DNA of 59,595 bases from Myxococcota bacterium (lineage in GTDB: Bacteria; Myxococcota; B64-G9): positions 1-59,595 of the forward strand of contig JBFFBT010000002.1 in assembly GCA_041560255.1 (NCBI GenBank), written 5' to 3'. This document shows positions 31,998-34,341 of the stretch, piece after piece (the first letter of the stretch is position 1; the number at the start of each line of letters is the position of its first letter). Position numbers and translations under genes: made by a program. The notes under the pieces are model-generated. The model saw nothing but the letters and a program-made list of their open reading frames with translations, was not told the origin of the DNA and did no database searches.

Positions 31998-32390
31998 ATG
32001 GAACACGTCATCGAATTGTTGAACCTCATTACTGAGGATGTCGATAGGTTTGTGAGCAGTGATGTCGTCATGGGAGAGCCCATTCGAATGGGAGACATCA
32101 CTTTGGTAACCTTATCCAAGATCAGTGTCGGTCTGGGGGCGGGGGGAGGTGAGGGAGAGGGCCACCATTCGGATGGATCCGGCAAGCACAAATGTCATCC
32201 AATGGGAAAAGGCAGCGGAGTAGGTACGGGTGGAGGCGCGCGAATTCAACCCGTTGGTGTGGTGGTGTTTTCAAAGCAAGGGGTGGAAGTCAAGTTGGTC
32301 AAAGCCTCCAGGGGACCCTTACAGAAATTGTTCGATAAACTTCCTGAGATGGCCGAATGGTTTAAAAAGAATCAGAAAGAGAACGGATAG
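31998..32390 (+). CDS. GerW/YtfJ-family protein (paralogue 2)
   Basis: VVMGEPIRMGDITLVTLSKISVGLGAGGGEGEG, followed by ARIQPVGVVVF. SD GGGAGG lies upstream. Confidence 0.75.
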   Translation: MEHVIELLNLITEDVDRFVSSDVVMGEPIRMGDITLVTLSKISVGLGAGGGEGEGHHSDGSGKHKCHPMGKGSGVGTGGGARIQPVGVVVFSKQGVEVKLVKASRGPLQKLFDKLPEMAEWFKKNQKENG

Positions 32391-32424: not shown

Positions 32425-33372
32425 CTAGATTTCCACCAGCGTGTATTGGTATGGGTTGAGGAATAAAAGCATATACGCACCGCTTACCACCGGATATCCC
32501 TTATTGACCCATGCGGTGATGCCGCCTTCCATGTGTACGGCGTCGGTAAATCCCAGGTTGAGCATTTTCTGCAAGGCCTGGCCGCTGCGGTTGCCGCTTC
32601 GACAATACACCAGGTATTTCTTATGTTTATCCAATTTTTGAAGCTGGGTTTCAAAATCCGACGCATAAAAATCGATGTTGATGGATTTGGCAATGCGTTG
32701 TTCCTTGAATTCGGTCGGGGTGCGTACATCTAAAATGACGAAATTGGGATTCGATTGGTTATCCTGAATCATCTGGTAGGCTTCATCGACCGATACCGCA
32801 TTGTCGGGCACTGGTGTGGGAGAAGGTTGCGGCGTGGGGGTCGGGGTGGGTTGGGGAGTCGGGGTGGGCGTCGGCTGAGGAGTCGGAGTTGGAGTGGGTT
32901 GCGGGTTGTCGCATACTTGTTTCTTATCGGAACAGCAATCGCCGTATTGTTCGCACAAGTTGTCACACCAGCATCCGCCCGGAGCCTTTTTGCCGCAATA
33001 CCCAACACAAGAATTGTTGGGTTGAGGAGTCGGTGAAGGCTGCGGTGTGGGGGTCGGGGTGGGCGTCGGCTGAGGAGTCGGAGTTGGAGTGGGTTGCGGG
33101 TTGTCGCAAACCTGTTTTTTGTCTTCACAGCAGTCATTGTACTGGGCGCACAAGCTGTCGCACCAACATCCGTCCGGGGACTTTTTACCGCAATAATCAC
33201 CTCCCGAGCTGTTTGCGCAAGATCCGGGAGCCAGTATCGGGACCTCATCCCGTTCTTCCACCTCCGGTTGGCTGGAACCATCATTCTGAGAGTTTACATC
33301 CTGAAGCGGCCCGCATCCGATGGTAAAGACGGCCGCGGCAAAAAGCCCGAACATTTTGGAAAAGAGCTTCAT
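32425..33372 (-). CDS. Lipoprotein: two somatomedin-B-like 8-Cys modules, Pro/Thr linkers and a C-terminal rhodanese domain
   Basis: Signal peptide with lipobox FTIGC (Cys20). Module 1 aa 52-89 (nt 33106-33219). Module 2 aa 122-154 (nt 32911-33009). (PTPTPQ)n linkers. Rhodanese aa ~195-295 (nt 32488-32790) with active-site loop CRSGNRS. Confidence 0.85.
   Translation of the reverse strand: MKLFSKMFGLFAAAVFTIGCGPLQDVNSQNDGSSQPEVEERDEVPILAPGSCANSSGGDYCGKKSPDGCWCDSLCAQYNDCCEDKKQVCDNPQPTPTPTPQPTPTPTPTPQPSPTPQPNNSCVGYCGKKAPGGCWCDNLCEQYGDCCSDKKQVCDNPQPTPTPTPQPTPTPTPQPTPTPTPQPSPTPVPDNAVSVDEAYQMIQDNQSNPNFVILDVRTPTEFKEQRIAKSINIDFYASDFETQLQKLDKHKKYLVYCRSGNRSGQALQKMLNLGFTDAVHMEGGITAWVNKGYPVVSGAYMLLFLNPYQYTLVEI
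32859..32913. repeat. 55-bp perfect direct repeat, copy 1 (inside the lipoprotein gene)
   Basis: tcggggtgggcgtcggctgaggagtcggagttggagtgggttgcgggttgtcgca is identical at 33054-33108, an offset of 195 bp (65 codons). Confidence 0.9.
33054..33108. repeat. 55-bp perfect direct repeat, copy 2
   Basis: Identical to 32859-32913. It encodes the CDNPQPTPTPTPQPTP segment following each Cys module. Confidence 0.9.
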
Positions 33373-33495: not shown

Positions 33496-34341
33496 CTATC
33501 GGGAACGGCTCGTATGTTCTGGTAATGTATATTTTTTTAGGATGCTGTCCACCACCAGGCATTGTGCCATCCCGGCTGAAAAGTCCAAACCGGAAGAGAT
33601 GTTTTGCGTGGCGCCGAAAAGAATGTCGAGGGTTTGGGGTGCGAAATTCATCGTGGGCGCAATCGTGATCGAGAAATCGTAAAAAAGCCATCCACCTAAG
33701 GATGCCGTAAAGAAGATCCAGGGCCAGCTGAGCAAACCTCCCCGCAGCGCCAAAGCGGTAAGCAGCAAAGGAGCGATCATGCCGAGGCTTACAATATCTC
33801 CAAAGGCGGAACCCACACCCAACAACGACATGGCCATGTCTTGACCCGCCAAGGCACTCCGAAATGCATGGTACGCTCCCGGCCCGGCGGCTGCAATGGC
33901 TATGGAAAATGCGGCGATCCGGATGACGAAGCGAATCTGCTTGGAGCCCGGCAACTCCAATCCCGCCACGAGCCAGGCGCGGGCAAACATGACTGTGCCG
34001 ATAACCGCCAGAATATTTGCAAGCACTGCTAAAGAACCCTGCGCAATTTCGACTTCATAACCGATGGAAGGTGCGAAATATGTCACAAGCGGCCCGAGTT
34101 CATACCATAGAAAAAGAAAAGGACAGGCTCCAAAAAACAACCAGGCTCTTCTCAAGTATTCTCCTTTTTCAAATTTCAAGGCGGCCGCTAAACAACCCGT
34201 CAACCATAGCATTTCCGAGATCGGACTCTGAAGGATTTGCAACAGCTTGGTGGCCCCCGGTTGGTGGTAAAAGATCAAGCTCAGGGTAAGGTACAACAAC
34301 ATCCATCCGACCGGTATGATGATTAGAGTCCGAAACTTCAT
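33496..34341 (-). CDS. Polytopic membrane protein (hypothetical)
   Basis: 281 aa with about 7-8 hydrophobic helices. No family motif recognised. Confidence 0.6.
   Translation of the reverse strand: MKFRTLIIIPVGWMLLYLTLSLIFYHQPGATKLLQILQSPISEMLWLTGCLAAALKFEKGEYLRRAWLFFGACPFLFLWYELGPLVTYFAPSIGYEVEIAQGSLAVLANILAVIGTVMFARAWLVAGLELPGSKQIRFVIRIAAFSIAIAAAGPGAYHAFRSALAGQDMAMSLLGVGSAFGDIVSLGMIAPLLLTALALRGGLLSWPWIFFTASLGGWLFYDFSITIAPTMNFAPQTLDILFGATQNISSGLDFSAGMAQCLVVDSILKKYTLPEHTSRSR

Follow-up and report, generated by a model that had tools for sequence, protein, structure and literature searches.

The window analysed here is a 59,595-nucleotide stretch from a Myxococcota bacterium (GTDB lineage Bacteria; Myxococcota; B64-G9), namely positions 1 to 59,595 of contig JBFFBT010000002.1 in GenBank assembly GCA_041560255.1. 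On its minus strand, at 32425..33372, an open reading frame (ORF) with an ATG start encodes a lipoprotein of 315 residues plus stop (P0001), in which two small cysteine-rich modules and their Pro/Thr (PT) linkers precede a rhodanese. Judged by sequence comparison and a predicted structure, both modules are genuine somatomedin-B (SMB) domains, and not convergent knottins. The gene is one of at least 63 in its genome that encode exported proteins with SMB modules. We think it rather probable that P0001 is an exported, lipid-anchored rhodanese on a stalk of SMB domains and PT linkers, and that the SMB pair is a portable, generic binding or docking cassette.

The literature treats SMB as an animal extracellular protein-binding module, known from vitronectin, autotaxin and EndoU. 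No mention of bacterial SMB domains was found in the literature that we searched, and sequence databases already tag such bacterial proteins with PF01033. The novelty lies in the setting, with a host that is a bacterium, a carrier that is a lipoprotein, cassettes joined by PT linkers, partners that are mostly peptidases, an expansion to about 120 copies, and the fusion to a sulfurtransferase. An earlier note on this DNA, made from the letters alone, had regarded SMB domains as essentially metazoan. At the level of sequence this view fails, given the Myxococcota and other prokaryotic occurrences described below. The same note had left open whether the modules were a rare bacterial SMB homologue or a convergent knottin-like module, and had proposed a PF01033 search, a scan with the PROSITE pattern PS00524, a structure prediction and a taxonomic survey.

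Identity of the two modules

The first module, SMB1 (residues 52-89, CANSSGGDYCGKKSPDGCWCDSLCAQYNDCCEDKKQVC; 33106..33219, minus strand), is of a long-loop subtype with the spacing C-x8-C-x7-C-x-C-x3-C-x5-CC-x6-C, to which 39 modules of the genome belong. The second, SMB2 (residues 122-154, CVGYCGKKAPGGCWCDNLCEQYGDCCSDKKQVC; 32911..33009, minus strand), is of the canonical type, C-x3-C-x7-C-x-C-x3-C-x5-CC-x6-C. Each has eight cysteines and both close with C-x-C-x3-C-x5-CC-x6-C. Translation and mapping bore out the positions and the spacing that the earlier note had read, the two modules together spanning exactly 32911-33219.

The PF01033 search gave a significant match, with 34.5 bits in two stretches for the whole protein (gathering cutoff 23.1). 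Taken alone, SMB2 scored 28.8 bits (HMM positions 2-39 of 40) and SMB1 22.5 bits, just under the cutoff. None of the 14 control genomes had a PF01033 match. When compared by phmmer with PDB sequences, residues 66-158 aligned to the SMB pair of human EndoU (9ftw_A, E 3.7e-6), and more weakly to ENPP2. The assignment of SMB1 draws on PF01033 and on the EndoU alignment; that of SMB2 draws on PF01033, a reciprocal profile, an AlphaFold2 model and Foldseek.

The reciprocal profile was built solely from 97 modules of the same genome and searched against PDB sequences (E <= 0.01). It retrieved 36 distinct sequences, all of them SMB domains of ENPP2, vitronectin, ENPP1 or EndoU. The alignments run end to end (vitronectin 3bt1_B and 1oc0_B, ENPP2 and ENPP1), with the eight cysteines as well as D, L, Y and D in register. 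The AlphaFold2 model of module 2, run on the alignment of these 97 modules, predicts an SMB fold with a pLDDT of 97.1. All 50 Foldseek matches listed from the PDB are SMB domains of ENPP2, ENPP1 or vitronectin (TM 0.69-0.79, rmsd 1.9-2.9 Å, identity 39-44%, probability 0.97-1.0). Their weak E-values (0.05-0.2) are explained by a query of only 35 residues. The knottin or inhibitor cystine knot fold, with its six-cysteine core, was also considered; the modules have eight cysteines, and knottins account for none of the 50 Foldseek matches listed. Because Pfam (above cutoff), phmmer, the reciprocal profile with its exclusively SMB matches, and the predicted SMB fold agree, we reject the convergent-knottin alternative.

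The PROSITE scan had a different outcome. The pattern PS00524, taken here in the form that the earlier note gives, C-x-C-x(3)-C-x(5)-C-C-x-[DN]-[FY]-x(3)-C, is matched by neither window module. The lysine that the note had seen at the [FY] position is found in both of them (CCEDKKQVC and CCSDKKQVC), though 19 proteins of the genome contain, between them, 27 paralogous modules that match the pattern exactly. Besides the cysteines, W15, D17, Y23, D25 and D29 are each at least 90% conserved among the 97 modules. These are surface residues outside the cysteine scaffold.

Much of this resembles the SMB domains of vitronectin, ENPP1/ENPP2 (autotaxin) and EndoU/PP11. The length is about 35-40 residues, the eight cysteines stand in the same register, with the core CxCD..LC..Y..CC.D, and the predicted fold has a TM of 0.7-0.8 to ENPP2, ENPP1 and vitronectin (3bt1_B). 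The extracellular context is shared, and terminal tandem pairs also occur in ENPP1-3 and EndoU. Unlike the animal domains, however, the modules described here belong to a bacterial host, sit on carriers with an N-terminal lipobox, and number about 120 in one genome. They are PT-linked, and their partners are peptidases, a chitinase or a rhodanese, in place of hemopexin, NPP and XendoU domains. Their second loop is shorter by two residues, the first loop reaches 8 residues in a second subtype, the Trp in CWC is nearly invariant, and Lys is frequent at the PROSITE [FY] position. The animal ligands PAI-1, uPAR and integrins are absent from bacteria.

Expansion of SMB modules in the host genome

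The host genome (5.7 Mb in 502 contigs, 96% complete) contains 91 PF01033 matches, and the SMB cysteine core is found in 119-121 copies in 63 open frames. This count is far above chance, as the core was found in none of 20,000 shuffled frames. Both subtypes are common, with 72 canonical C-x3-C modules and about 40 C-x8-C modules; the window protein has one of each. A lipobox is present in 40 of the 63 SMB ORFs, typically as ..GCGP, like in the window protein, and 15 others have a signal-like N-terminus. All of these numbers are lower bounds, since 21 of the 63 ORFs touch contig ends. Many contigs stop inside DNA that codes for PT linkers, and such repeats fragment an assembly (502 contigs in this case), so the number of SMB genes itself is a minimum.

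Within this genome the SMB modules are always accompanied by PT linkers and occur in one to three copies per protein, with two modules in 26 of the 39 complete ORFs. The cassette ends three residues or fewer before the stop in 24 of these 39 ORFs, often as ...C-G*. It is internal in ten, and in five, including the window protein, 21-31 residues separate its start from the lipobox cysteine. For 75% of the modules the nearest relative sits in another protein (identity 85% vs 73%), which points to a shuffling of entire cassettes from gene to gene, and not to a duplication of modules in place. This organism has made SMB its dominant tag for exported proteins.

Partners of the cassette

The partner regions form about 25 sequence clusters and are mostly peptidases. 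Among cysteine peptidases, Pfam identifies Peptidase_C1 (papain-type) with a chagasin-like I42, gingipain-type C25 with its propeptide, and C39_2/C70-like domains. The other peptidases comprise subtilase S8 with I9, the metallopeptidases M28, M14 and M23, and the trypsin family S1. Further partners are a GH18 chitinase with CBM5/12, PPC, PHP-like domains and proteins with ELW..DGT repeats. A small non-catalytic module that is repeated within one genome, PT-linked to many unrelated exported catalytic domains, and often C-terminal and in tandem is also characteristic of CBM- or dockerin-type modular hydrolases. The analogy is one of organisation only. In contrast to those hydrolases, the module here has an SMB fold, and not that of a known CBM or dockerin, and the partners are mostly peptidases instead of glycoside hydrolases.

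The largest partner family consists of 13 paralogues with a lipoprotein domain of about 300 residues and the invariant motif WGRxGHGY...YANSC. This domain has no Pfam match, and its AlphaFold model was poor (pLDDT 50.7). Members are found, for example, on contigs C81, C191, C219, C309, C413 and C463, and include P0004, P0007 and P0009. The His/Cys pair of the motif is reminiscent of clan-CD cysteine peptidases. Six other SMB lipoproteins (on contigs C60, C93, C135 and C156, and from two genes on C306; P0002 is an example) end in a doubled CxxCH, as in ...CLDCHPNAHYPNSNCKSCHPNPH*, a tail for which Pfam gave no match. Going by the motif, this end could be a minimal di-haem tail on an SMB/PT stalk.

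Distribution in other prokaryotes

In the family of the host, 17 genomes were compared: PF01033 matched once in each of two and not at all in the others. Across the phylum, the taxonomic survey found PF01033 (E <= 1e-5) in 35 of 301 sampled genomes and 18 of 137 genera, almost all with one copy; several complete genomes of 10-12 Mb keep one conserved copy. The host genome of the window has the most matches in this tally, and one other genome has 15. The latter (G047) belongs to a different family, and some of its scores, up to 45.8 bits, are above any in the host genome. It may represent an independent, smaller SMB expansion.

A scan with a back-translated IUPAC motif, for which one genome per prokaryotic species was used, detected at least 108 motif-bearing stretches in other prokaryotic genomes, a count that is approximate owing to false positives, so that the Pfam tally for the phylum is the cleaner number. 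The stretches listed come mostly from metagenome-assembled genomes labelled Myxococcales, Myxococcota, Nannocystaceae, Polyangiaceae, Kofleriaceae, Bradymonadales or "Deltaproteobacteria", and a few from Thermodesulfovibrionia, Thermoanaerobaculia, Hydrogenedentota and Woesearchaeota. The name "Deltaproteobacteria bacterium" is attached to one homologue. When ten of the motif-scan proteins were scanned with Pfam, eight were confirmed as PF01033, including S8+I9 and M57 peptidases with a C-terminal SMB domain. A Sorangium locus (L097) had fitted the motif spuriously, as it encodes an ankyrin protein that PF01033 does not match, and one more of the ten had no match either.

The SMB fold is present across Myxococcota. 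Its association with peptidases (S8, M57) recurs in other members of the phylum. PT linkers are rare outside the host genome, and the modules of other Myxococcota occur without them. The idea of a rare bacterial SMB homologue has thus held with respect to SMB, which is supported by Pfam, reciprocal profile and fold, but not with respect to rarity, considering about 120 copies in 63 ORFs, 35 of 301 genomes of the phylum, and the 108 or more stretches of the approximate motif count. Longer arrays were seen in metagenome proteins: P0071 (1211 residues), P0167, P0154 and P0086 have 7-18 tandem SMB modules each. P0071 is a bacterial lipoprotein with 18 of them, and P0167 ends in dockerin-like repeats.

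The rhodanese and its fusion to the SMB pair

The single rhodanese domain of P0001 covers residues 195-297 (32482..32790, minus strand) and matches PF00581 nearly end to end (71.3 bits, cutoff 22.2; E 1e-19; HMM positions 2-101 of 102). Its best solved relatives are 6mxv_A (8.9e-19), 3gk5_A (5.8e-14) and, at 1.3e-7, Sud of Wolinella succinogenes (1qxn_A), a periplasmic polysulfide-sulfur transferase; the PspE structure 2jtq is a weaker match (1.6e-5). The catalytic loop CRSGNRS (residues 257-263; 32584..32604, minus strand) is intact and aligns with the cysteine loops of 3gk5_A (CAHGNRS) and 6mxv_A (CGSGFRS), with Cys257 as the predicted persulfide carrier. By its sequence, this six-residue loop is of the sulfurtransferase type and not of the phosphatase type. 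The pattern search, PF00581 and the PDB alignments are in line with what the earlier note had described, namely a lipobox, (PTPTPQ)n linkers and a rhodanese with an intact CRSGNRS.

All scores against the NCBIfam rhodanese equivalogs were far under their cutoffs (PspE 31.9 vs 126.3, GlpE 35.7 vs 102, rhodanese_LYCAU 47.4 vs 115), so that the enzyme belongs to none of these named subfamilies by score. PspE, Sud (1qxn) and GlpE-type rhodaneses are also single domains of about 100 residues with a six-residue cysteine loop, and PspE and Sud are located outside the cytoplasm. In contrast to all of these, the predicted lipid anchor of the window rhodanese carries it on a stalk of about 175 residues, in which PT linkers are interrupted by two SMB domains of 33-38 residues each, and it has no psp or psr/phs neighbourhood.

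The nearest homologues, P0012 (55% identical) and P0018, are exported or membrane-anchored and have CRSGNRSG, but carry no SMB. Among the 69 matches of a word-indexed search, P0001 was the sole combination of PF01033 and PF00581. The SMB core and the rhodanese loop occurred together in none of the best 150 of 24,160 matches to 1.84 billion representatives. Within the SMB set of its own genome, too, the rhodanese partner occurs once. On these sequence comparisons, the SMB-rhodanese fusion appears to be unique.

Sulfur metabolism and disulfide formation

The host genome encodes dsrA (588 bits, above the NCBIfam cutoff). Sulfate-reducing anaerobic Myxococcota have been described (10.1101/2021.07.06.451402), and the host likewise appears to be an anaerobic sulfite or sulfate reducer. 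Machinery for disulfide formation is encoded as well: in one protein (C127:6599-7885) VKOR is fused to thioredoxin, and five others are DsbA-like Thioredoxin_4 proteins. Judging from this gene content, the cell can in principle form the disulfides of its SMB modules. The gene for the VKOR-thioredoxin fusion lies 5 kb from that of an SMB-tagged M14 carboxypeptidase, and a DsbA-like gene (C306:3148-3621) directly follows two genes for SMB lipoproteins with CxxCH. A link between this machinery and the SMB secretome is possible.

Proposed function

The SMB pair with its PT linkers would most likely be a compact, protease-resistant, disulfide-knotted module for binding or docking. Such a cassette would keep exported enzymes bound to a ligand or partner that they have in common, and its tandem use could provide avidity. 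Candidate ligands are the surface or matrix of the cell itself, or else a polymer or protein that is targeted. In P0001, the cassette would give a sulfurtransferase that forms a persulfide on Cys257 its place in a sulfite- or sulfate-respiring bacterium, either periplasmic or on the surface of the cell, and thiosulfate or polysulfide would provide the sulfane sulfur that the enzyme handles there. We regard the role of the cassette as generic because the SMB/PT unit is shared by dozens of exported proteins with unrelated catalytic domains. The earlier note had suggested that the modules tether a sulfurtransferase. The tethering can be retained, as a task of the lipid anchor and the PT stalk, whereas the SMB pair, with its dozens of unrelated carriers, is not specific to sulfurtransferases.

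The data show what the domains are, how they are arranged, how far SMB has expanded, which partners it has and that genes for disulfide formation are present; the binding function and the ligand of the cassette, like the localisation and the substrate of the enzyme, we infer. Several observations speak against this interpretation. Most carriers are already lipid-anchored, so that retention at the cell would by itself need no SMB. For an anaerobic sulfite or sulfate reducer, it is not obviously easy to keep about 480 disulfides oxidised in the vicinity of sulfide. The neighbours of the gene in the window have no family match or are unrelated, such as GerW/YtfJ-like, GGDEF, M23 and TPR proteins; there are no sulfur genes among them, and no functional link to sulfur metabolism. 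Scans for promoters and terminators stayed at background level and were uninformative.

The strongest competing explanation, unlikely in our view, is that the SMB modules have no ligand and are inert, protease-resistant knots that punctuate or stabilise the PT stalks, as structural spacers in a protease-rich secretome. This would fit with the constant company of PT linkers in the host genome, with carriers that are mostly peptidases, for which a protease-resistant spacer would be useful, and with the lipid anchor that 40 of the 63 carriers already have. A terminal cassette, however, as in 24 of the 39 complete proteins, spaces nothing, and the modules of other Myxococcota do without PT linkers. 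An inert knot would also leave the strong conservation of W15, D17, Y23, D25 and D29 on the surface unexplained. To our knowledge, every characterised SMB domain, such as those of vitronectin and ENPP2, is a protein-binding module. We therefore favour binding or docking over a spacer because of the conserved surface residues, the tandem arrangement and the terminal position in most carriers.

A bolder form of the docking hypothesis extends it to the whole secretome. About 60 SMB-tagged lipoproteins and hydrolases would gather on one receptor or surface polymer, in the manner of dockerins on cohesins, with the rhodanese as one cargo among many. The SMB domains of Myxococcota would be the ancestral pool of the animal domain, or else the product of an ancient transfer in the reverse direction. 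We consider this extension speculative and rather doubtful.

It is improbable that the cassette, instead of binding, acts as a signal for export, sorting or attachment in the way of C-terminal sorting domains. Like sorting tags, it is common to many unrelated exported hydrolases, and its last module lies within three residues of the stop in 24 of the 39 complete ORFs, often with ...C-G*. Its position varies nevertheless, as it follows the lipobox in five proteins (the window protein is one of them) and is internal in ten. The copy number ranges from 1 to 3 in the host genome and reaches 18 in P0071. Furthermore, the carriers already have Sec or lipoprotein signals, and a tightly disulfide-bonded fold forms after export, not before it.

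A third explanation concerns the enzyme. In dsbA mutants of E. coli, PspE is able to bring disulfide formation back. By analogy, P0001 could be a PspE-like periplasmic rhodanese, of which the cysteine sulfenate or persulfide feeds oxidising equivalents into the formation or repair of disulfides in SMB modules, and which is directed there by its own SMB pair. In favour of this are a weak match to the PspE model (TIGR02981, 1.3e-7, under the cutoff) and the roughly 480 cysteine pairs that have to be oxidised in an organism with dsrA. On the other hand, a dedicated VKOR-thioredoxin fusion and several DsbA-like genes are present, and there is a single such fusion of SMB and rhodanese, with no conserved partner genes. 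As this role is purely conjectural, we judge it very improbable. Hardly credible, finally, is a convergent cysteine-rich, knottin-like fold unrelated to SMB or a eukaryotic contamination of the bin: although scores are modest (23-46 bits; Foldseek E about 0.05-0.2), as follows from a domain of about 35 residues, a quarter of them cysteine, and both window modules deviate at the PROSITE [FY] position, the Pfam cutoff was reached, the bacterial-only profile and all 50 Foldseek matches listed lead to SMB exclusively (the former reciprocally, with the eight cysteines and D, L, Y and D in register), 27 paralogous modules fit PS00524 exactly, and the carriers have bacterial lipoboxes on contigs, the 59.6-kb window contig among them, whose composition is that of the rest of the genome (GC 0.497 for SMB contigs vs 0.500 elsewhere, with an equal tetranucleotide profile).

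If the SMB pair is a binding or docking cassette, as we propose, it raises the questions of what ligand a bacterial SMB domain recognises, how a sulfide-producing anaerobe keeps hundreds of disulfides, and where the animal SMB domain originated. It also offers structural biology and engineering a very small binding scaffold that is well predicted and modular by nature, and of which about 120 natural variants exist.

Layout of the gene and its surroundings

From the N- to the C-terminus, P0001 consists of a signal peptide with lipobox, a polar spacer, SMB1, a PT linker, SMB2, a second PT linker, the rhodanese and a tail; all coordinates that follow are on the minus strand unless noted. The signal peptide (residues 1-20, MKLFSKMFGLFAAAVFTIGC; 33313..33372) agrees with the lipobox pattern [LIVMFWSTAG]2-[LIVMFYSTAGCQ]-[AGS]-C, a rule that should correspond to PROSITE PS51257. 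Lipidation is thus a prediction, with Cys20 as the lipidated residue. An acidic or polar spacer of 31 residues (21-51; 33220..33312) leads from the lipid anchor to SMB1. Linker 1 (residues 90-121; 33010..33105) has 32 residues and linker 2 (residues 155-194; 32791..32910) has 40; both are rich in Pro and Thr, with some Gln, and (PTPTPQ)-like. Past the rhodanese fold, a C-terminal tail of 18 residues (GAYMLLFLNPYQYTLVEI; 32428..32481) gave no match in Pfam and PDB sequence searches.

At the DNA level, the two units of module and linker form a direct repeat of 194 nt (78% identical), within which 56 bp are repeated exactly in the same direction, with a period of 195 bp. The first copy (32858..32913) encodes the ...CDNPQPTPTPTPQPTPTP junction after SMB2, and the second (33053..33108) lies after SMB1. 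These exact repeats span the junctions from module to linker, or the starts of the linkers, while the cysteine modules have diverged. Identical junctions next to diverged modules suggest, from the repeat pattern, a recent gene conversion or slippage in the linker DNA.

The contig of the nearest stand-alone rhodanese has no neighbours in common with the window gene, and no sulfur genes. Upstream of the SMB-rhodanese gene, at 33496-34341 (minus strand), a multi-pass membrane protein of 281 residues is encoded, for which no family match was obtained. The convergent gene downstream, at 31998-32390 (plus strand), encodes a GerW/YtfJ-like "sporulation" protein, of a kind that is unusual outside Firmicutes.

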